Source: a virus | Lineage: Duplodnaviria; Caudoviricetes | Direction: 5' to 3' (one strand) | Virus record (IMG/VR): IMGVR_UViG_3300039305_000010 | Location: 1-28,658 of that record | Length of the DNA stretch: 28,658 nucleotides | Shown: one piece after another, positions 5,591 to 15,967 of the stretch | Numbering within the stretch: the first letter of the stretch is position 1 | Layout of the letters: each line of letters begins with the position of its first letter | Made by a program: the position numbers and the translations under genes | The notes under the pieces: generated by a model | Databases searched by the model: none | Told to the model about the DNA's origin: nothing | What the model saw: only the letters and a program-made list of their open reading frames with translations

Positions 5591-7095
5591 CGCTTCCCCC
5601 GCGCCGTCACCTCGAATATCGGCTTGCCGAGACGAACGTAACTCGGATTGGAATTGCCCGAGAATTTGAGCGCAAAGACCGCCCCCGTTGCTCGGAAGTC
5701 CTTCTTTCCGCGCCCTTCCGCCAGCGTGTAGGGCCCGTGTGTCGTGACTGGGGCCTGCGGGTATTTGCGGGTTTCCACGGTAAGGCTGATCGACCCAACC
5801 TGGTCCTCGAAGTCGGGGTAGACGGTGCGGGTCATGAACTGCTCGCCGCCGTCCTGAATATACTGGTCGGCGGTCTTGATGGACCAGTCGAGCGCCGAGC
5901 CGTTCGCCGTTCCTCCGAGCTCGTGATAGAATATCTGCCCCGCGGGGCTGACCATGATCGGGTAACCGATCACCCCCGCGTCAATGGCAGCGGTGCGGCC
6001 GAAATTGCCCCGCGACCATGAGCCGTCCACCGTTGAAACAAAGAGCGAGCGGCTGTTCTCGTTTCCGTCCCTGCTGTCGGGATAATGCCACCATATTTCG
6101 CCGAACCGGGAGACCGAGCCGGCATAGATTTTGTCACCCTGTGCTTCGGCAAGATTGTCTGCGAAGTCCGAGCGGATCGGGCAGGTGATGATCTCCGGCG
6201 TCCCGCCCAGCGGCCAGACTCGAAACTGGAGGTCCGGTGCAATCCAGTAGGCGGTCTGGCCCACGATCGCGACCGCGTTGGGCCCGATCAGCCCCGAATT
6301 CTCCTCGATCCGATCGAAGCGCCAGGGATTGTTCGTGTCGCCGGTATATTGGCCGAAATAGACGCTGTTGTCGGTCCAGACCGCCACTCCGTTCCCGAAC
6401 CTTCGCCCGGCAACGATGCGCCCGCCGCCCTCGAGAATAACTTCGCCGGCATTGTTGGAGCTCGTGGTGGTCCAGGCCGTGATGTTCTCGATGTCCGAAA
6501 AGCGGATGCACATCGGATTGAAGGTTCCGCTCACCTCCTCGTTGCAGCCGAGCGCCATGAGCTGGCGGGTGAAAAGAACGAGCGCATAAGTAACTTGGGC
6601 AGGGGAATTCGTGACCTGAGCCGCGACAGCGGCCGTGTTGTTCAACCACTGGTAGATCTTGCCCAGGCGAGGATTGGCGATCAGCGTCTCGCCATAGGTG
6701 TCCAGCACCCAGGTGCGCGGATAATAGTTCGAGCGGGGCGTTCCGTAGGTGCCGGTGCCGTAAGTGTCCGCGCCATAGCCGGGGCCGCCAACGCCGTCTT
6801 CATTGCCCGCCGCCAGTCCGGCAGGAGTGATGTTCGCCAGCGTTCCGCCCTGATAGACGTAGAGACCCGAATGGGTTCCGAGCCCCAGCGTGATGTTGCC
6901 GTCATTGTCCGCCCAGGAGAGGAGGCCGCGGCACTTGCCGGCCACGGTATCGGATGTGACCGCATCCCATCCCCCGATCGTCTGAGGCCGCCCGCGCCAG
7001 AAGCGCATATTCGCAGCATCCTCATAGCGCCCGGTGGAGGAAAACGTCGTGTCGTCCGAAACAAGGCCGGGCGGAATGTCGAGTGCGGTCCTCAT
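5587..7095 (-). CDS. P22 gp10-like tail hub / packaged-DNA stabilization protein
   Basis: 502 aa beta-propeller-like; IRFSDIEN, GLIGPNAV, EIWWHYP motifs; RBS AGGAGG; synteny. Confidence 0.75.
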   Translation of the reverse strand: MRTALDIPPGLVSDDTTFSSTGRYEDAANMRFWRGRPQTIGGWDAVTSDTVAGKCRGLLSWADNDGNITLGLGTHSGLYVYQGGTLANITPAGLAAGNEDGVGGPGYGADTYGTGTYGTPRSNYYPRTWVLDTYGETLIANPRLGKIYQWLNNTAAVAAQVTNSPAQVTYALVLFTRQLMALGCNEEVSGTFNPMCIRFSDIENITAWTTTSSNNAGEVILEGGGRIVAGRRFGNGVAVWTDNSVYFGQYTGDTNNPWRFDRIEENSGLIGPNAVAIVGQTAYWIAPDLQFRVWPLGGTPEIITCPIRSDFADNLAEAQGDKIYAGSVSRFGEIWWHYPDSRDGNENSRSLFVSTVDGSWSRGNFGRTAAIDAGVIGYPIMVSPAGQIFYHELGGTANGSALDWSIKTADQYIQDGGEQFMTRTVYPDFEDQVGSISLTVETRKYPQAPVTTHGPYTLAEGRGKKDFRATGAVFALKFSGNSNPSYVRLGKPIFEVTARGKR

Positions 7096-7447: not shown

Positions 7448-7531
7448 TACGACGCAATCTGTCGAAAGCTCAGCGTGCAGCGCCCGGGCGGGCCTGGGCT
7501 CATGCCCGTGGCTTGGGGCTTCTGTGCCGGA

Positions 7532-7655
7532 TTGAGCGGAGGCGCCGTCTGGCATATGTCGGGTCTGGAGGCCGAACGTCAGAAAGTCGCGTCCTGCGGG
7601 CCGCCGAGCTTCGGCTCGGCCACCGATGGGGAATTTCGCGCGCCCCCGGCCTCCA
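7532..7655 (+). ncRNA. candidate sRNA module 6 (promoter plus stem-loop)
   Basis: TTGAGC(7532)-N17-TATGTC(7555); stem TGGAGGCCG 7566-7574 / CGGCCTCCA 7647-7655; inner GCCGAGC-TTCG-GCTCGGC (cUUCGg tetraloop on + strand). Confidence 0.6.
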
Positions 7656-7820
7656 ACCTCACCACTTCGGCAGTCGATCCGTTCCTCACGGTAGGCAGAC
7701 TTGATCAGTGTCTCCCCCGTCCGTCATTTTCGGCGATGAAGCCGCTACGCGACAAGCCCGCGCGCGCCTGGCCCGAGCGGACCTAAGCCCATGTCCGTAG
7801 CTCGGGGTTTCTGCGCGGGA

Positions 7821-7939
7821 TTGAGCGGAGGCGTCGCCTGGCTTATATTCCGACTGGAGGCCGAACTGCGGAAAATCGTGCTACGCTGGGCGCTGTTTCA
7901 GTTGCCGATGGAGGGATGTCGCGCGTCCTCCCGGCCTCC
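7821..7939 (+). ncRNA. candidate sRNA module 5
   Basis: TTGAGC(7821)-N17-TATATT(7844); stem GGAGGCCG 7856-7863 / CGGCCTCC 7932-7939. Confidence 0.6.
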
Positions 7940-7953
7940 GAGGCCCAGGCTCA

Positions 7954-8070
7954 TTGCCTTCAAGCGCTGGTACCTCTAACCGTGGATGCCCGGCCAACCT
8001 GGGGATTTTGCAGCCTGGTTGATCAAGTCGGGGACGCTGCCCGTCCTACCGTCTCCGCGCCGGTGTTTTT
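7954..8070 (+). ncRNA. candidate sRNA module 4
   Basis: TTGCCT(7954)-N17-TAACCG(7977); short stems CCGGC/GCCGG, CAACC/GGTTG, GGGACG/CGTCCT; ends in T5 (8066-8070). Confidence 0.4.
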
Positions 8071-8076
8071 GACGAG

Positions 8077-8155
8077 CTAGTTGGGTTTGAACGCGGTCAA
8101 CAGCCAAGTCTTGGTTGCGCCATCGAAATCAACGCGCACCACCGCCCGTGCTTCA
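8077..8155 (-). pseudogene. orphan C-terminal tip of a phage BECR (PBECR1-like) nuclease domain
   Basis: Reads EARAVVRVDFDGATKTWLLTAFKPN*; AVVRxDxDGxxKTWLLTAF is a recognisable end of phage barnase/colicin E5-like domains; no start codon. Confidence 0.6.
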
Positions 8156-8258
8156 TTGACTTATTCCTGCGTCTTCGCTCTGTTAGCGCTGGAGCCCGCG
8201 GGGGCTGCATTCCGGTTTCGTCCGGGTGCAGACGTCTCGGACACCGATGCGGGCTCCA
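8156..8258 (+). ncRNA. candidate sRNA module 3 (homolog of module 1)
   Basis: TTGACT(8156)-N17-TCTGTT (degenerate -10); stem TGGAGCCCGC 8190-8199 / GCGGGCTCCA 8249-8258. Confidence 0.55.
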
Positions 8259-8430
8259 CCTCACTGCTTCAATCGTGTAGAGCGGGTTCGGCTCATTGGG
8301 CCGGTCGTTTCCTTGATTGTTAGCTTCACGTCCAATCGTCGCCCTTAAACATCATCGAGGCGATATAGCGGTGCACGGCCTTAACTGTCGGCTCCCCCCC
8401 CCCCCCCGGGTCGTCGATCCGTCTGGCCCT
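8190..8430 (-). pseudogene. diverged, frameshifted copy of the 3' end of the 8697-10799 gene (LPD3-like tip)
   Basis: Aligns to about 8709-8965 with mostly synonymous substitutions, three single-base homopolymer deletions and a C14 run (8394-8407). Confidence 0.85.
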
Positions 8431-8438
8431 CGTCTTCG

Positions 8439-8530
8439 TTGATTTGTGCTACTTACGGCGCTATGTTGGCTAGGGCTCCGGCAGTCCCAAGGCTTTTCCT
8501 CGGTCAAGCTGTCGGAGCTACCTTTTTTTT
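8439..8530 (+). ncRNA. candidate sRNA module 2
   Basis: TTGATT(8439)-N17-TATGTT(8462); stem GCTCCGGCAG 8475-8484 / CTGTCGGAGC 8509-8518 (one G.U on + strand); T8 tail 8523-8530. Confidence 0.6.
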
Positions 8531-8668
8531 AGAAGCTTATTCGGATTTCGGTTGAGATTATAGAAGATCTTACCGTTCGCATCCTCTGCGACCGAAATAC
8601 CGACAGCGTATCGGGAGCCGCTCATCTTCATTGCTCTCTAGAAGTGGTGGAGCACTACCTGAACCCGT
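8518..8668 (-). pseudogene. orphan C-terminal tip of a second LPD3/BECR-like variant
   Basis: Reads VVLHHF*RAMKMSGSRYAVGISVAEDANGKIFYNLNRNPNKLLKKR*; same H-x-F...Y-x-V-x-I-x-V-x-E...G-x2-FY layout as the intact tip. Confidence 0.55.
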
Positions 8669-8674
8669 CCTTTA

Positions 8675-8783
8675 TTGACTCAGTCTCTCTTTTTGACTAT
8701 AAATCGCGTGGAGCCCGCGGGGGCCACGTGCCGGTTTTGTCCGGGCGTGGAAGCCGTAAACCCGGAACCGAAGCGGGCTCCAC
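8675..8783 (+). ncRNA. candidate sRNA module 1, antisense to the 3' end of the intact effector gene
   Basis: TTGACT(8675)-N17-TATAAA(8698, overlapping the gene's stop codon); perfect 11-bp stem GTGGAGCCCGC 8708-8718 / GCGGGCTCCAC 8773-8783; inner TCCGGG/CCCGGA. Confidence 0.65.
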
Positions 8784-10799
8784 CCTCACAGCTTCAATCG
8801 TGTAGAGCGGGTTGGGCTCATTGGGGCCGGTCGTTTCCTTGACCGTTAGTTTCACGTCCAGTCGACGCCCTTTGAACATCATCGGCGCGATATAGCGGTG
8901 CAGGGCCTTAATTGTCAGCTCCTCCCGGTTGTCGGGGTGCGTCTCGACCCGTCTAGCTATCGCGAAGAGTTGGTCCGCATTCGCCACGGCGGCCGCATGC
9001 TCCTCCGGCCCTATCGATTTTTCGAACGCCTTCGCGCTCGTCATCTTGCCCAGGCTTTTATTAGAGACCGTGCCGTCTAGATCTGTCCATTCGTTGCGGA
9101 TAGGACGGCCGACAAAGGCTTTTGCGGCAGTTCGCGCCTCGTTGAGCGTCGCTGCCCCGCGCTGCGGCACGATCGGCTCCATTTCGTCGGCGACACTGAG
9201 CCAAGCCTCCAAACCGTCCTCGCGCTTGCGCAGCGCCCGCGGGACGAGAGGCAAGACTTCCTCGCCTACACGTCCAAGCGAATAGCCGCCGGCGAACCCC
9301 AATCCCGCGCCGACAGCAGCGTTTGGCGCGCGCTGCAGAGGATTACCCTCACCAGCACCGAAGCCGGCCGCGAAACCCTCCGCTGCGCCGTACTTAGCGA
9401 ATTGTCCTGCGGTCCTTGCGCCGCCACCCACGGGAATAAGCAGACCCGAGGCAAGTTGGCCGCCGAACCGCGCTTCGAAGTGGTCGCGCTCGTCGGCCTG
9501 GAGGATGCTACGGTTTTCATCGATGTTGCTATTGAGCACGTCGAGGAACGGACGGTCAGAGGTCCAAATATTTTCCCGCCCGCTCGTCGCGCCAAGCGTG
9601 TCAGCAACCGCGCCCATTTCATCGAGCAAGTTGATGGGATCGCCAAACCCGCGAGCGGCCGCGCCGCCCGCACCGTCCGGGTTCTTGGGGATCTTTCGGA
9701 GCCTATAATCTGGGTCCTTGTTGACGCCCAGTCCCTTGGCCCGAGCCTCCACGATCGCGTCAGCATTGGCGAGTTCGTGGCCGAAGCTTTTCATCAGCGC
9801 TGTTAGCTGTTCGGGCGTTGACTTCAGATCAGTCGCCATGTCCAGATACCGCGCCAGTTGCTCAGGCTTCAGCTTGGAGGCGACGGTTTCAGGAAGCTCA
9901 TCATTGAAGGCAATGCCCGCAACGGGGCTACCGACCAGCCGCGCGCGACCGGCCCGGTCGAGACTTTCCTTCCCGGCTTCCGGCGCGATACGGGCGCCCT
10001 TGCCGCCCTTGTCGCGCCAGGCAATCGCCTGTCGCAGGTTGGCGGTGTTGCCGCGGTCGAATTGGATGCCGAGGCTGAAGGCCATTTTCAGCAGATCGCC
10101 GACCGAAGCGCCGTTGTCGAATGCCGCCTGTAGCTGCGCGTTCTTCGCAGGATCGACTTGGCTCCGATACGGTGCAGGAGGCTGGTTGGCCTGGCCGCCC
10201 AACGGTTGCTCCGCCACCGGCTGAGGTGTGCCTGCGTCCAGTGCGTCGGCAGCAATCCTACCTGGGCGGCCGGTACGAGCAATGCGGCGATTTGCCGCTG
10301 CCTCATCGGCGCGGATGCGAGCCGCAGTTGGATGAACCTGCGCCGCCCTGCTCGTGACGGTGTCGGGGCGAGAAGCGGCAGCCGTCCGCGCCGGATCGGC
10401 GACACTGGCAGGTGCGTCAATCCGGGGACTCTGCAAGCTGGCCTTCTGTCCGTAGGCTTTTGGTCCATTTGCCCGTAGCGTGAAGTCCTGAACCGACCTG
10501 TTGAGGTCGGATGAGCTCGCCTGGATGCCGATCGTCCGGGCATGGCGATCCGCTTCCGCTAGCGCTCCGAGAAGATCGATCGAGCCGATCTCCCCGCCGC
10601 TGTCGCCGAGCCGGTCCGCGCTGGGGCGCGTTGCGAAGAGGCCGCGAGGTTGGGGTGCAGACTGGAACAGGGAAATGCGCGCCGGGAGGCCATTGCGCGG
10701 CGTCTGCTGGCCTATGAAATCGTTCTGCCGGAGCCAATCCTCTATCGGGCTGCCCGGCCTGTCGTCGAGCATCTGCCCGACCGAATTGAAGAGACCCAT
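8697..10799 (-). CDS. ejection-type/polyvalent protein with C-terminal LPD3 (BECR-fold, putative RNase)-like domain
   Basis: 700 aa; low-complexity N-part, Gly/Ala hydrophobic mid-region (GAAEGFAAGFGAGEG); C-terminal VSNKSLGKMTS...HAAAVANADQLF...HRYIAP...VKLTVKE...LYTIE. Confidence 0.7.
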   Translation of the reverse strand: MGLFNSVGQMLDDRPGSPIEDWLRQNDFIGQQTPRNGLPARISLFQSAPQPRGLFATRPSADRLGDSGGEIGSIDLLGALAEADRHARTIGIQASSSDLNRSVQDFTLRANGPKAYGQKASLQSPRIDAPASVADPARTAAASRPDTVTSRAAQVHPTAARIRADEAAANRRIARTGRPGRIAADALDAGTPQPVAEQPLGGQANQPPAPYRSQVDPAKNAQLQAAFDNGASVGDLLKMAFSLGIQFDRGNTANLRQAIAWRDKGGKGARIAPEAGKESLDRAGRARLVGSPVAGIAFNDELPETVASKLKPEQLARYLDMATDLKSTPEQLTALMKSFGHELANADAIVEARAKGLGVNKDPDYRLRKIPKNPDGAGGAAARGFGDPINLLDEMGAVADTLGATSGRENIWTSDRPFLDVLNSNIDENRSILQADERDHFEARFGGQLASGLLIPVGGGARTAGQFAKYGAAEGFAAGFGAGEGNPLQRAPNAAVGAGLGFAGGYSLGRVGEEVLPLVPRALRKREDGLEAWLSVADEMEPIVPQRGAATLNEARTAAKAFVGRPIRNEWTDLDGTVSNKSLGKMTSAKAFEKSIGPEEHAAAVANADQLFAIARRVETHPDNREELTIKALHRYIAPMMFKGRRLDVKLTVKETTGPNEPNPLYTIEAVRVEPASVPGLRLPRPDKTGTWPPRAPRDL

Positions 10800-11036: not shown

Positions 11037-11681
11037 ATGAAGATCGCCATTTGCAGCCCGGTCTATTCCACCGTGACGATGAACTATGCTCACTCGCTGG
11101 TGACCATGGTGCACTGGACGGACCAGGCCGAGATTGTGTTCAACGGTAAACCGGCGCGCCCGGCGATCGAGGTCTTCATGGACCAGAGTTCGGTCCTGCC
11201 TCAGATCAGGAACCGCCTCGTCAGGTCGGCCGTGGAATGGGGCGCGAACTACCTGCTATGGATCGATTCCGACATATCATTCCCGAAGGAAAGCCTGCTC
11301 AGGCTCCTGTCGCTCAACCTGCCCGTGGTGGGTGTCAACTATCCGCGGCGTGGCCCAGGCATCCGCCCCACCGCCATCGGGCTGAACGGCCAGGATGTTT
11401 TCACCACTCAGCAGCTCGCCAACGCGCTTACCGTAGAGCCAGTGACGAGTCTCGGCCTCGGCCTCTGCCTCATCGACATGCGCGTCATTCACAAGCTCAA
11501 GGGCAAGCCATTCTTCGCGCTCGAGATGTTGGGTGATGATGGGACGGAGTTCAAAGGCGAGGATTACTTCTTCTTCGAGCGCATTCGAAAGGCAGGCTTC
11601 ACCATACACCTCGACCATCACCTATCGTGGGACATTGGCCATGTCGCGCAGCGCACACTCAAGAACTCGCATGGCGGTTGA
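11037..11681 (+). CDS. GT-A fold (GT2-like) glycosyltransferase, paralog 1
   Basis: MKIAICSP, RNRLV, LLWIDSD (DxD), GLGLCLI, GEDYFF, IGHV. Confidence 0.8.
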   Translation: MKIAICSPVYSTVTMNYAHSLVTMVHWTDQAEIVFNGKPARPAIEVFMDQSSVLPQIRNRLVRSAVEWGANYLLWIDSDISFPKESLLRLLSLNLPVVGVNYPRRGPGIRPTAIGLNGQDVFTTQQLANALTVEPVTSLGLGLCLIDMRVIHKLKGKPFFALEMLGDDGTEFKGEDYFFFERIRKAGFTIHLDHHLSWDIGHVAQRTLKNSHGG

Positions 11682-11699
11682 AATGACCGATATCGGCTT

Positions 11700-12389
11700 A
11701 TGAAGATCGCCATTTGCACGCCCTACTATGGAGACGTGACCCCTCAATATGCGCTGTCGCTCGCCAACCTCATCCTCTTCACCGGGCGGTGTCAGTTCGA
11801 GTTCAACGGCCATCCCGCAGTGCCTGAGATCAAGCCGTTCATGCGGACCAGCTCCCTCGTGCCGGAGGCCAGAACCTGGCTTGCCGATGATGCCTTGGAA
11901 TGGGGCGCAAACTACCTGCTGTGGATCGATTCCGACCATTCATTTCCTGAAGATGCGCTGGTCCGCCTTCTCTCTCACAATAGGGATATGATCGGGGCCA
12001 ACTACGCTCGCCGAACCCGCCCGTCTCTCCCCACCGCCCGTGATGATCGGGGCGGCCCGATATGGACAACCGAAGCGCAGGCGAAGGCCGGGGAAGTGCA
12101 GGAAGTGCATGACGTTGGACTTGGCTTCTGCCTCGTTTCAGTGCCCGTGATCCAGGCCCTCAAGGCGACCGGCAAGCCGCTGTTCGCGCTTGCCATGTCC
12201 CCGGATTATAAGCATTTCGTTGGAGAGGATTACTATTTCTGCGAACTGGTGCGGGGATCCGGGCGTAAGATTCATGTGGACCACGCCCTCTCCTGGGAGG
12301 TGGGGCATGTGTTCCGGTCAGAACTGTTCAACCGGGACGTGATTGCTGACCGCCTGTCCGGGCGGGGAGGCGATCCACTTCCAGCCTGA
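11700..12389 (+). CDS. GT-A fold (GT2-like) glycosyltransferase, paralog 2
   Basis: MKIAICTP, LLWIDSD, GLGFCLV, GEDYYF, VGHV. Confidence 0.8.
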   Translation: MKIAICTPYYGDVTPQYALSLANLILFTGRCQFEFNGHPAVPEIKPFMRTSSLVPEARTWLADDALEWGANYLLWIDSDHSFPEDALVRLLSHNRDMIGANYARRTRPSLPTARDDRGGPIWTTEAQAKAGEVQEVHDVGLGFCLVSVPVIQALKATGKPLFALAMSPDYKHFVGEDYYFCELVRGSGRKIHVDHALSWEVGHVFRSELFNRDVIADRLSGRGGDPLPA

Positions 12390-12460
12390 TCGTTCCACTG
12401 ACATCATCCTGCCCCGGTCCGTCCTGCCGGGTTTGACCTCCAAGCGGGGCGAGCTGCAAG

Positions 12461-13168
12461 CTATTGTGGAAGCGGATAAAAGCCGAGCCGGTTGAAGTTT
12501 TCTTCCGCATCGTAAACCGCTCCCGCCGATGTGTGCGGGTCAGGCGGCGGTGGCTTGCCCATTGCCTCGAAATGCTCTCGCCAATGTGAAACATAATAGA
12601 GTGTTTTACGTCCGGTCCAGGCGTGGGAGACGCCGTGAATGAGTACCGCGTTCAGCATGATCCGATCACAGATTGGGGAGACCTTGGGATCCATCATTGC
12701 CCAGATGGGCACGAGAAATGCTGCGCCCGCCGTGATGAAGAAGCAGCTTGTGTCGACATGTTTGCCGGCAGCTTCGTCAGGGTCGAACCGATCGAATAGC
12801 TCGCCTGTGGAGAGAACGATGTGCCGACTGCTGAATGCGACCTTACAGCCATTCTCGAGACAGCATGCGACAAGGCTTTCGACGTGATCCGGAGCATACC
12901 AATTGTCGGCGTCGAGATAGGCGATCGCGTCGAACCCTTGGTTCAGGGCAGAGATACCCCCGATACCGCGCGGTGTGTTGCCGAAATCGCGGTGAGAAAC
13001 CGGGAGGATGATGTGCTGTACATCCCAGGAGCTTAGCTCAGGCTGAGGATGGCCGTCGGCAACAAAGAAATGAGTGCAGGGATAGGTTTGCTCCAGGACG
13101 CTCGTGTGGCATTTCCGCAGCGTTTCCAGGTCCTCCCGATAATATGGGCTTATCACCGCCACCTTCAT
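12461..13168 (-). CDS. glycosyltransferase family 2 protein
   Basis: Likely start MKVAVISPYY (RBS GAGGA); SVLEQTYP, VADG, AYLDADN, VDTSCF. Confidence 0.85.
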   Translation of the reverse strand: MKVAVISPYYREDLETLRKCHTSVLEQTYPCTHFFVADGHPQPELSSWDVQHIILPVSHRDFGNTPRGIGGISALNQGFDAIAYLDADNWYAPDHVESLVACCLENGCKVAFSSRHIVLSTGELFDRFDPDEAAGKHVDTSCFFITAGAAFLVPIWAMMDPKVSPICDRIMLNAVLIHGVSHAWTGRKTLYYVSHWREHFEAMGKPPPPDPHTSAGAVYDAEENFNRLGFYPLPQ

Positions 13169-13392
13169 ATCGTCTGATCCTCGCGAACGGACAGCCTGTC
13201 GCCTCTGCGCCCCAGCCGAGCCGCCTAAAGCGCATGCCCAACTGATCATAACGAATCCATCGCTTTTCCGAAGACATTCCCAGAAGAACAAGGCGCTGAC
13301 GATGCCCCTTCCTAGCGCGGAGGGCGATCACCTGCCCTTCCTCAAATCGGCCGGCCGGGCTATCCCGCTGGGAGATATCCTGGAGATCCGAA

Positions 13393-14145
13393 TTGCACTT
13401 GTTCGTAAGCGTTCCCAGCCACGGCGGAACCGTGGTGACTGAGACCGCCCTTACTATGGTCACCATCCAAGCGATCGCATTGGGTTGGGGTTGGACCGTC
13501 ACCTTCAACACGGCCTCCAGCGCCGTAATCTCCGAGGTTCGAAACGCTATCGTCGGCCATTTCCTGAAGTCTGGAGCTGACCGCCTCTTGATGCTCGATG
13601 CGGATCAGTCGCTCGCGCCGGAGAGCATTGAGAGAATGCTTGGACTGGACAAGCCGGTGGTCGGCTGCATCTATCCAAAGCGGAGGCTCCAATGGTCCGA
13701 AGTGAACCTGAAGACCGCAACCAATATCGACGATATTCTCTATCAGGCTTCCGATTATGTGGGGAGGCTGGAGTTTAGTCCCCAAGGCACGACGGAAGTG
13801 GTGAACGGGTTTGGCAAGGCCCTGCATGTCGGAACAGGGATTTTGCTGATCAGGCGTGAAGCCTTCGAAGCGATGATGGAAGCCTTTCCCGATCTAAGGA
13901 ACCGAGGCTTTCACGATGATATGTTCCCGGGACTTGATGGGCTCAATTGGGGCTTCTTCAACCACATCGAGGTGGACGGTGAGTGCTCGTTGTCCGAAGA
14001 TGTCTCGTTTTGCAGGCGCTGGCGCTCACTCGGCGGAGAGATTTGGGCGGACGTCACCAGCAACTCAACGCATACCGGCGCTTACCATTATCGTGGCAAC
14101 TATCTCGATCATCTGAAAGCGAAAGGCGCCATCAACCCCGTTTGA
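13393..14145 (+). CDS. GT-A fold glycosyltransferase-like protein, paralog 3 (more distant)
   Basis: TTG start with GGAG; RNAIVGHFL, LMLDAD, GTGILLIRR, LSEDVSFCRRW, HTG. Confidence 0.8.
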   Translation: MHLFVSVPSHGGTVVTETALTMVTIQAIALGWGWTVTFNTASSAVISEVRNAIVGHFLKSGADRLLMLDADQSLAPESIERMLGLDKPVVGCIYPKRRLQWSEVNLKTATNIDDILYQASDYVGRLEFSPQGTTEVVNGFGKALHVGTGILLIRREAFEAMMEAFPDLRNRGFHDDMFPGLDGLNWGFFNHIEVDGECSLSEDVSFCRRWRSLGGEIWADVTSNSTHTGAYHYRGNYLDHLKAKGAINPV

Positions 14146-14261
14146 TCGGTGCGTGCGGCCACACCCATCACACCGCCGATCTTCTGCGCCTTGGCGGCCG
14201 CGAGGTCATAGGGAGGCTCGGGCACCTAGCTCGCCATAACGTCTCCAATATGGGTGGCCAT
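14146..14261 (-). pseudogene. remnant 5' end of a tail-fibre assembly/chaperone-like gene
   Basis: RBS GGAGAGG then MATHIGDVMAS*VPEPPYDLAAAKAQKIGGV; PP-x-DLAAAKAxKI is typical of tail assembly proteins. Confidence 0.35.
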
Positions 14262-14290
14262 CGGACGCCCTCTCCGGTTATCGCTGAGGA

Positions 14291-14975
14291 ATGAAAATAG
14301 CCATTTGCACGCCTCATTATGCCGATGTGAGCGCGAGGTTTGCCTACTGCCTTGCCAAGATGATGGTTCGGACGGTGCAGGCTCCGATCATGTTCAACGA
14401 TCAGGTTACGGTGCCGCAGATGGATATCTTCATGCGCAGCTCCTCAACACTGCCGACGCTCCGGAACATGCTAGTCAAAGACGCCCAACACTGGGATGCA
14501 AACTATCTCTTATGGGTCGATGCTGATCACGACTTTCCCGAAAGAAGCGCTGCTGCGGCTGCTTTCCCTGAATCTCCGCGTTGTGGGCGTGAACTATCCG
14601 CGCCGCACCTCGCCCACCATCCCCACTGCCACAACGCTCGACAACGAGGTTCTTTGGACCACCGAAGAAATGGCGAGGAACCTTGAGATAACCGAGGTGA
14701 GCCATATAGGGCTCGGCCTCTGCCTGATGGACATGACCATCTTGAACGAAATACCCGACCTGTGGCCGCTATTTGCCTACGAAACACTGCCCGGCAAAAT
14801 TGAGGGCGTCGGGGAGGACATCTACTTCTTCCGCAAGCTGCACGCGGCCGGCATTCCCGTCCACGTCGATCACGCGCTTTCGTGGACGATCGGCCATGTC
14901 CACCAGCAACTGCTCACCAACGAGCACGCATGGCAGCAGCGAGACGCCTATATGGCCTCTCGATCGAATCGATGA
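14291..14975 (+). pseudogene. GT-A fold glycosyltransferase paralog 4, split by a one-base insertion (or sequencing error)
   Basis: ORFs 14291-14686 and 14496-14975 join into a 227-aa paralog of 11037-11681 if one C is removed at TTTCCCG (14537-14539). Confidence 0.8.
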
Positions 14976-15011
14976 TTCCCAAAGCCGGGGGGTGGAATCG
15001 GACTGAGGTGA

Positions 15012-15053
15012 CGACGAGATACGGCCGGGCGGGATGTCGAGAGCTATTCTCAT
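15012..15053 (-). pseudogene. second, shorter 5' fragment of the gp10-like gene
   Basis: MRIALDIPPGRIS; shares exact 17-mer GAGAGCTATTCTCATTC with 10993-11009. Confidence 0.75.
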
Positions 15054-15079
15054 TCCGCCTCGCGCTCTAAGAAGCTTGA

Positions 15080-15967
15080 ATGCAGCGCAGTCTCGTTCCG
15101 TTTGCCGATGGTTGGGAAGCTCATCAGAACCGCCATTGCATCTGGGTGGTAAGCCCCGAGGGTTATGATCACCGGACATTCGATGAAGTGGCGGATGCGC
15201 TGGAAGATGCGTTCCGCGAATTGGGCGGGTCTGCTCCGATCGTTCGCAATCCGGAGGAATGGAATGGCCGGATTCCCATCGTCTTGGGAGCGAACCTTCT
15301 CTGGCGCCTGGGCTACCCGCCAATGCCCCCCAACAGCATCATCTTCAATTTGGAGCAGATGATTGAAGGTAGCGTCTGGATGAGCGACCGCTACCTTCCC
15401 GCGCTTCAGCAATTCCCGGTGCTGGATTTCAGCAAGCAGAACCTCGCCTCCCTGCATGGGCTCGGCATAAGGCACGCACGCCTGCTCGAAATCGGCTACT
15501 CTCCGGCGCTTGCGAAAATTCCAATTTCGCTGGAGAAGCCTTACGACGTTATCTTCTACGGCTCCGTAAACGACAGGCGGCAGCGCATCATTGATGAGCT
15601 GGTTGCGCGCGGAATGATCACAGCCTCACTTCGAGGCATCTATGGACCCGATCGAGACCTCCACATTGGCCGGGCCAAGCTGGTCGTCAACATCCACTAT
15701 TATGAGCAAAGCGCGTTCGAGGTGGTTCGCGTTTCCTATCTGGTGGCGAACAAAATCCCTGTTCTTTCAGAACGGCGGCCGGACGAAACAGACGGTGAGT
15801 GGGCAGGCGTTGAGTATGCCTCCTATGATCAACTGGTCGAGCGTTGCATCGCCCTGGTTGATGATGACCGGTGGCGAGAGCGGCTTGCCGAAGATGGCTT
15901 CCGCCACTTTTCCGAGCGCCGACAAGCCGATCTTTTGAGAACGTGCATAGCGGAGTCGCAGTTCTAG
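15080..15967 (+). CDS. GT-B-like glycosyltransferase
   Basis: 295 aa; IIFNLEQ, DVIFYGSVNDRR, AKLVVNIHYY, FEVVRVSYLVAN, VLSE. Confidence 0.75.
   Translation: MQRSLVPFADGWEAHQNRHCIWVVSPEGYDHRTFDEVADALEDAFRELGGSAPIVRNPEEWNGRIPIVLGANLLWRLGYPPMPPNSIIFNLEQMIEGSVWMSDRYLPALQQFPVLDFSKQNLASLHGLGIRHARLLEIGYSPALAKIPISLEKPYDVIFYGSVNDRRQRIIDELVARGMITASLRGIYGPDRDLHIGRAKLVVNIHYYEQSAFEVVRVSYLVANKIPVLSERRPDETDGEWAGVEYASYDQLVERCIALVDDDRWRERLAEDGFRHFSERRQADLLRTCIAESQF

Follow-up and report, generated by a model that had tools for sequence, protein, structure and literature searches.

How can a phage keep a gene for a predicted ribonuclease (RNase) on a virion-type protein when no immunity gene follows it? The question is raised by the Caudoviricetes record IMGVR_UViG_3300039305_000010, of which the whole stretch of 28,658 nucleotides (nt), here called the window, was analysed. 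A gene on its minus strand (P0001; 8697-10799; gene call and Pfam) encodes a 700-amino-acid (aa) protein with a C-terminal LPD3 domain and a tip of type A, and six antisense units, each a promoter-like site that points into a predicted RNA, lie at its 3' end, the first across its stop codon and the other five beyond it. Across related loci, a covarying stem that closes the RNA from 5' to 3', a constant placement at the domain's 3' border and a constant strand were shown to be a trait of the LPD3 family. Judged from the sequence, we lean slightly towards a reading in which every predicted RNase domain has a cognate RNA that binds and blocks it.

The LPD3 domain (PF18798; aa 554-659; 8823-9140, minus strand), a predicted BECR-type RNase, was identified by Pfam (E 5.6e-14; 52.7 bits against a curated cut-off of 27). 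It was the only Pfam domain on the 700-aa protein, with no match to a toxin of the ToxN, CptN, TenpN or AbiQ families. A BECR-fold RNase was taken to consist of a helix and then four to five strands, with a His in the helix and a Ser or Thr in the last strand. The structure model of LPD3 (predicted local distance difference test, pLDDT, 92.4) has helices followed by four strands; His601 is kept in 54 of 63 domains and Thr/Ser667 in 59 of 63. Atlas features of the domain were nearest to PBECR3 and PBECR1 at 0.82-0.86, a lead only, and a PDB sequence search with LPD3 returned no match. The model suggests that LPD3 belongs to the BECR fold; the initial annotation had called this C-terminus LPD3/BECR-like, and Pfam confirms the first half of that label while the second is read from model topology. 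No minus-strand open reading frame (ORF) with a ribosome-binding site was found 3' of the gene, only chance frames of 36-81 codons or tip remnants, so that the immunity gene typical of a polymorphic toxin is missing from the locus, as had been claimed at first.

All six hexamer pairs were confirmed on the plus strand with 17-nt spacers (starting at 8675, 8439, 8156, 7954, 7821 and 7532). The promoter-like site of unit 1 (TTGACT-17-TATAAA; 8675-8703) overlaps the stop codon of the 700-aa gene with its -10 box (8698-8703) and leads into a predicted type A RNA (8708-8783; fold z -2.8), antisense to the last 29 codons, in which a perfect inverted repeat of 11 base pairs (bp) joins 8708-8718 to 8773-8783, exactly as first described. 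Unit 2 (TTGATT-17-TATGTT; 8439-8530; z -4.1) is of type B, with a hairpin closed by 12 bp (8474-8519) and a T8 terminator-like tract, and unit 3 (TTGACT-17-TCTGTT; 8156-8258; z -3.1) carries a second type A hairpin (8190-8258). Least certain is unit 4 (TTGCCT-17-TAACCG; 7954-8074; z +0.5), which is of type C, with a weak fold and a T5 run at its end. The type D units 5 (TTGAGC-17-TATATT; 7821-7940) and 6 (TTGAGC-17-TATGTC; 7532-7655) have predicted RNAs closed by 9 bp (7855-7940 and 7566-7655), are weak by folding energy (z -0.4 and -1.6) and are 74% identical over 132 nt, flank included. The count of about four RNA types given in the initial annotation therefore stands (A, units 1 and 3; B, unit 2; C, unit 4; D, units 5 and 6). 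Between units 1 and 3 the inner helix differs by three compensatory pairs.

A rule fitted to the window's units (TTG-N17-T[A/C], then a stem of at least 9 bp starting 4-7 nt later) was passed by five of the six, unit 4 being the exception, compared to 0.15 on average and 2 at most when 7500-8800 was shuffled 300 times. The rule gave four additional matches elsewhere in the 28.7-kb window. A generic promoter scanner called unit 5 and none of the other five. Three of the six -10 boxes have no -7 T, as is the case for most alphaproteobacterial promoters (PMC8407463). No Rfam family matched the six RNAs of the window. Within the LPD3 coding region, an extra TTG-N17-TC match with a 12-bp stem (8929-9030, plus strand) was also seen and is probably due to chance.

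The spaces between the units hold the minus-strand ends of other C-terminal domains. Displaced tip B (8473-8658) comes from the 3' end of a further LPD3 domain, is broken and has no start, and shares 76% identity with the C-terminus of P0002. Displaced tip A' (8164-8397) is an older, frameshifted version of the tip that the gene itself carries, with a DNA identity of 86-95% and a tail like that of P0021. Displaced tip C (8049-8154) ends in a WLLTAF strand and has 88% identity over 25 aa (8080-8154) to the C-terminus of P0003, and displaced tip D (7594-7767), also broken, matches the C-termini of P0009 (E 2.7e-9) and P0004. These remnants are stubs of 75-180 nt that start within about 40 nt of the -35 box of the preceding unit. 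Such startless tips had been described between the units and were present in four of the five intervals; unit 5 has none, and the gap from its stem to the -35 box of unit 4 is 14 nt. Among the 10 proteins returned, P0002, P0003, P0004, P0006 and P0009 share body parts with P0001 and end differently, P0002 in tip B, P0003 in tip C and the other three in tip D. The tip of P0002 is an LPD3 domain and that of P0004 is PBECR3-like by Atlas features (0.91), and the tip of P0003 compared with a PBECR1 domain was not significant (E 0.21). Because the displaced tips reappear as the ends of homologues that have the same body, swapping of tips on a conserved body is shown, and the polymorphic tips and tip replacement proposed at the outset are borne out.

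Three further details were seen in these remnants. The sequences just past both type A -35 boxes (8664-8685 and 8145-8166) are 82% alike and also read as the start of tips B and C, a likeness that suggests microhomology at the junctions. A run of 13 C (8396-8408) lies within tip A' at the frameshift, and the T8 run in tip B exceeds the in-frame length by one base.

The unit is far more general than the initial annotation knew, and usually lies within the ORFs of giant polyvalent proteins. Loci L031-L088 were searched with a profile of this LPD3 subfamily, giving 44 distinct hits that reach the domain end, or 41 after removal of near-duplicates, and the strict test looked for an antisense TTG-N16-18-TAnnnT within 40-230 nt of that end. 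The pattern followed 36 of the 41 domains on the antisense strand compared to one of the 41 on the sense strand, and occurred in 0-7 of 38-41 cases in the control windows (n = 12). The five strict misses deviate at a single place, the first -10 base, and their stems have 8-11 bp at +6 or +7. For the 36 units, with the best-stemmed promoter match chosen where several existed, a stem of at least 9 bp was present in 30 compared to 2 of 35 controls, the stem started 5-8 nt past the -10 in 34, the fold was more stable on the antisense strand in 28, and a T-rich tail followed the stem in 25. Most of the surveyed units sit within reading frames of more than 1000 codons. Four loci fetched after the rule was set gave two strict units, one relaxed unit and one failure.

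Sequence change also points to the RNA. Among 12 related RNAs, 12 of 19 consensus pairs were compensatory, and the basal helix (helix 1 only) was 96.6% paired, with both bases altered in 8 of 10 pairs. P0001 and P0021 read the type A inner hairpin in different frames; the two-frame hairpin motif gave 11 and 13 matches among 158 domains, mostly at the protein level. Tandem promoter-hairpin units after a single LPD3 domain, within the ORF, were found at L046 and L087 (2 of 41 other loci) and by eye at L068, and these may be in-frame orphans. An I-x6-V[NK] protein motif tried as a proxy for the promoter matched 9 of 133 linkers and was dropped for the DNA test. The DarB-like LPD3 domains of phages JC1 (L091:3001-3318) and NK-7 (L154:701-994) keep a promoter-like peptide motif, with no hairpin call.

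It could be argued that there is no functional RNA at all, the stems being structures of the mRNA strand or by-products of linker codons and the array neutral recombination debris. The weak folds of units 4-6 and the decayed -10 of unit 3 (discussed below) would suit this, as would the fact that RNA-deleting junctions are traceless, so that retention may be survivorship; the strand bias of the promoter pattern, the fixed 5-8-nt spacing to the stem, the antisense-biased stability, the T-rich tails and the persistence of units outside coding sequence (L033, L099, L147, L149) nevertheless make it very improbable. For the orphans, neutral debris by itself is plausible.

The unit goes with the type of domain. 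Of 21 other domains in the same proteins (seven ART, four LPD1, three InPase and seven singles) one had the promoter pattern and none a stem of at least 9 bp; the difference between LPD3 and non-BECR domains had a Fisher P of 1e-10, the loci not being independent. Units also followed four further LPD3 domains, two MuF_C domains and one PBECR3 domain, while one PBECR2/3 domain had none under the strict rule. ORFs with two BECR-type domains carry two units (L032, L036, L048, L057, L061). Of the DUF6883 domains, a loose control in that their immunity genes are unconfirmed, one in eight gave a weak call. For the PBECR genes, whose scan together with LPD3 genes was suggested in the initial annotation, the unit was seldom seen under the fixed rule (one of seven PBECR1-3 loci). 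Four of these seven loci are from Helicobacter, where extended -10 matches appear instead.

This allotment of one unit to each domain bears on a cis-antisense (type I-like) explanation, by which the RNA would pair with the mRNA 3' of the domain and cause RNase III decay of leaky late transcripts, and the orphans would act on the late mRNA of superinfecting relatives. The unit lies about 2 kb from the start codon, so that a block of translation is out and decay is the only possible route. For such control one RNA per gene would do, yet every BECR-type domain has its own, and the ends of each RNA are locked in its own stem of 9-12 bp. Decay of leaky transcripts would also leave a cell that makes the protein in bulk without protection. 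The complementarity is perfect by position, there are precedents in RatA/txpA (3'-end pairing and RNase III; PMC4147584) and in the exclusion by STnc6030 of prophage BTP1 (PMC7067206), and the absence of units after domains that lack the predicted catalytic His (below) would fit as well. Taken with the tRNA-like versions described below, whose D- and T-arm features are needless for base-pairing, these points make cis-antisense control unlikely, though it is the first of the alternatives to consider.

Presence of the unit follows the predicted catalytic residue in the MuF_C domains. His-bearing MuF_C domains were followed by a unit in nine of nine cases (seven strict, two relaxed), compared to none of the three His-less domains (Mu, MuM16-1 and L100), after which the next gene starts almost at once (Fisher P = 0.0045, the sets not being independent; L101, a weak hit with a stop, and L115, a duplicate, were excluded). 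The gp30 domain of phage Mu has been called inactive (Iyer et al., PMC5512222). The MuF_C-linked RNAs of L036, L032, L092, L097, L098 and L116 were also seen to share an AATTG[G/T/A]A-type loop (a shorter variant in L032), which is read in the protein as an LQLP-like motif.

The RNAs that follow three Mu-like gp30 genes have the shape of a tRNA in which the anticodon arm has been replaced. The tRNA-like RNAs lie antisense just after His-bearing Mu-like gp30 genes (L099:1797-1874, L147:892-971, L149:813-892 and, at L150, about 6640-6730, all on the minus strand). Rfam tRNA scores were 35.6 and 31.0 bits for L099 and L147 against a cut-off of 29, and L149 was sub-threshold. These Mu-like units lie wholly beyond the stop codon and keep D- and T-arm features of a tRNA. 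A stretch matching the Mu-like element was found in 230 of 5426 E. coli genomes, and 9 of 15 among the matches listed carry a tRNA-OTHER annotation; the Sakai Sp18 element was absent from the Tree 2014 supplements. The unit of a Helicobacter canis prophage (L090) gave a weak tRNA-clan match at the predicted place (E 0.61), below the cut-off. At the same locus (L090:8163-9400), five antisense extended -10 matches with stems of 6-9 bp follow a terminal PBECR3 domain, and the nearest two units share a 7-nt loop identical to the anticodon loop of tRNA-Met(CAU); it is possibly a second orphan array, in sequence that is AT-rich and gives a weak signal. The type A hairpin was tested as a mimic of the tRNA-Gln anticodon arm and was not significant, and mimicry of known type III or retron RNAs found no support.

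The tRNA-like versions and the tracking of the His bear in opposite ways on a further possibility, that the RNA is a partner or cargo: the domain would bind or trim the RNA cognate to it, and an effect on the host would come from that RNA or from the complex, a decoy for host defence RNases being one example. Domain-specific pairing and covariation fit this equally, the tRNA-like forms agree with it, and tip D has RNAs despite having no obvious helix His (seen in P0004). The RNA is lost where the His is lost, however, and orphan RNAs with no domain would be useless unless they acted alone. The displaced-tip arrays also speak against a partner or cargo role, being the pattern typical of toxin-immunity loci such as Rhs and contact-dependent inhibition (CDI) systems. 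Even with the RNA-binding or anti-CRISPR roles proposed for PBECR domains by Iyer et al. (PMC5512222), we judge a partner or cargo role improbable.

Binding of the domain by its RNA fits better than base-pairing because there is one unit per domain, units are lost with the His, the folds are self-closed and the tRNA-shaped versions lie beyond the stop. A swappable C-terminal domain, the predicted RNase, would have each tip type paired with its own antisense promoter-hairpin unit. A promoter of the sigma-70 type would yield an RNA of 50-110 nt constitutively. The domain would cut host RNA, possibly tRNA, and the RNA would neutralise the domain by its shape, as a decoy substrate. The lysogen and the cell that produces phage would thereby be protected. 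An incoming tip would bring its own RNA and promoter, with the 3' junction just past the -35 box, inside the old tip, and the displaced RNA would remain as an orphan that could block a matching domain injected by a related phage.

A number of results weigh against this RNA-binding reading. The BECR fold of LPD3 rests on topology plus an Atlas lead below 0.9. At the locus, the type A RNA (8708-8783) is by position perfectly complementary to the last 29 codons of its own mRNA, a complementarity like that of a type I toxin-antitoxin (TA) system. The layout of unit 1 was proposed to recur five more times, and while the hexamers and spacers do, unit 4 lacks a closing stem of 9 bp and is no more stably folded than its shuffles, and unit 3 has a -10 (TCTGTT) with no A at position 2 that looks decayed. 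P0021 shows that the compensatory changes of unit 3 may predate its displacement. None of the six RNAs of the window resembles a tRNA significantly (shuffle P 0.27-1.0 in a comparison with 30 Sphingomonas tRNAs). In the survey, synonymous recoding gave z < -2 in just 15 of 36 units (1 of 35 controls), a modest effect, and the LPD3 domains of JC1 and NK-7 gave no unit call. The fixed rule was passed by one of seven PBECR1-3 loci, the weaker candidates in four of them being post hoc, and the His-less set consists of three Mu-like genes that are not independent. Iyer et al. suggest mRNA or CRISPR RNA, not tRNA, as the targets of PBECR domains (PMC5512222).

The weakest step is the orphan 'immunity library' against related phages, because among the orphans at least one promoter seems decayed and one RNA has a poor fold; we hold it tentatively, as somewhat less probable than binding itself. 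The second-position A is missing from the -10 of unit 3 and the unit duplicates unit 1, for which reasons unit 3 is probably dead or silent. In favour of a library, one plausible promoter is left for each of types B, C and D, and 2 of 41 other loci have units in tandem. Junctions that delete the old RNA leave no trace, and retention of orphans may therefore reflect survivorship.

A lead on expression comes from Helicobacter. The antisense RNAs HPnc5970 and HPnc6000, opposite HP1116 of H. pylori, have been validated by Northern blot (PMC8322730), and a record annotated 'CUP0956/HP1116/jhp1044-like' matches the LPD3-type domain studied here. jhp1044 carries four PBECR domains, for which mosaic swapping was noted (PMC5512222). 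The two RNAs may be examples of expressed units, a lead that is weakened by how common antisense starts are in H. pylori (46% of ORFs; PMC8322730).

Known systems resemble the locus in part. As in type III TA systems (ToxIN, CptIN, TenpIN, AbiQ), a structured RNA is predicted here to bind an RNase and so to neutralise it. The antitoxin of a type III system consists of tandem repeats that fold as pseudoknots and precede a ToxN-like toxin gene on the same strand, with a terminator between (PMC4147584), whereas the RNAs here are single-copy and antisense, lie 3' of or inside the toxin gene, and have their own promoter and a 5'-3' closing stem, so that neither the layout nor the toxin family is that of type III. 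Polymorphic toxins, including MuF toxins (PMC5576092), share the conserved body, swapped tips, displaced tips downstream and the context of phage virion genes. Of 191 MuF toxin genes, 89.4% have a small downstream ORF (PMC5576092), unlike the present locus, where no immunity ORF lies downstream and the orphans are short tip stubs with RNA units. The PBECR and LPD3 domains of polyvalent proteins (PMC5512222) belong to the same domain family and virion-gene context; in the available text of that paper no linked RNA is mentioned, the term 'immunity protein' occurs zero times and LPD3 is not among the PBECR families. Orphan modules are held by Rhs and CDI loci.

Toxins of type I systems are typically small peptides. 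Their 3'-overlap antitoxins (RatA/txpA, SR4/bsrG; PMC4147584) are likewise antisense RNAs over the 3' part of the mRNA. STnc6030 of prophage BTP1, opposite a DNA-injection gene and excluding superinfection, is the nearest phage antisense precedent; it is 786 nt long (PMC7067206), compared to self-closed RNAs of 50-110 nt here, one per domain and specific to the domain type. HPnc5970 and HPnc6000 are antisense RNAs in a gene of a mosaic PBECR-bearing family with no function assigned in the available text (PMC8322730). No description of RNAs tied to PBECR, LPD3 or MuF_C domains was found in the openly available literature, and the accessible part of a 2026 preprint on BECR classification contains none of 'LPD3', 'noncoding' or 'RNA antitoxin'.

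The setting of the gene is that of a virion protein. The window is a P22-like phage record with genes for terminase, P22 portal, P22 coat, scaffold, tail and lysozyme on the minus strand. The middle region of P0001 is homologous to large P22-like internal virion proteins of sphingomonad prophages (26 of 27 loci being from named genomes), two of which score as 'internal virion protein', and the shortened 700-aa protein is presumably packaged and injected. Scans with the conserved body gave 30 loci, nearly all encoding proteins of 860-1810 aa; none of them has a tip resembling those of the window, and no second DNA copy of the exact array was recovered. Scans of viral contigs with the single protein found no relatives, and a search with the exact promoter-hairpin pattern found no matches. 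In the closest DNA relative (73%; L003:1068-4010), the gene for the long virion protein is split and lacks a BECR-type tip. The late operon is broken immediately upstream of the 700-aa gene by a block of mostly plus-strand genes (11037-15967), which include three phrog_1574/glycosyltransferase-like ORFs and one GT2 gene.

Our overall proposal is put forward with less than even confidence. PBECR, LPD3 and MuF_C RNase domains would be widespread polymorphic toxins, each with a cognate substrate-mimicking immunity RNA (in some cases a tRNA body with no anticodon) encoded antisense in the toxin gene, and orphan arrays would be a heritable record of, and a defence against, the effectors of rival phages. 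Up to 26% of the polyvalent proteins of phages contain PBECR domains (PMC5512222), and no self-protection mechanism for any PBECR domain was found in the available literature. If true, the proposal would account for phages that carry RNases but no immunity genes, and RNA antitoxins would gain a new layout. A function would also be at hand for HPnc5970 and HPnc6000 of H. pylori and for what is annotated as tRNA-OTHER in Mu-like prophages. The locus itself, with four cognate/non-cognate pairs on one body, offers a ready specificity matrix, and the shape of each RNA would point to the substrate of its nuclease.

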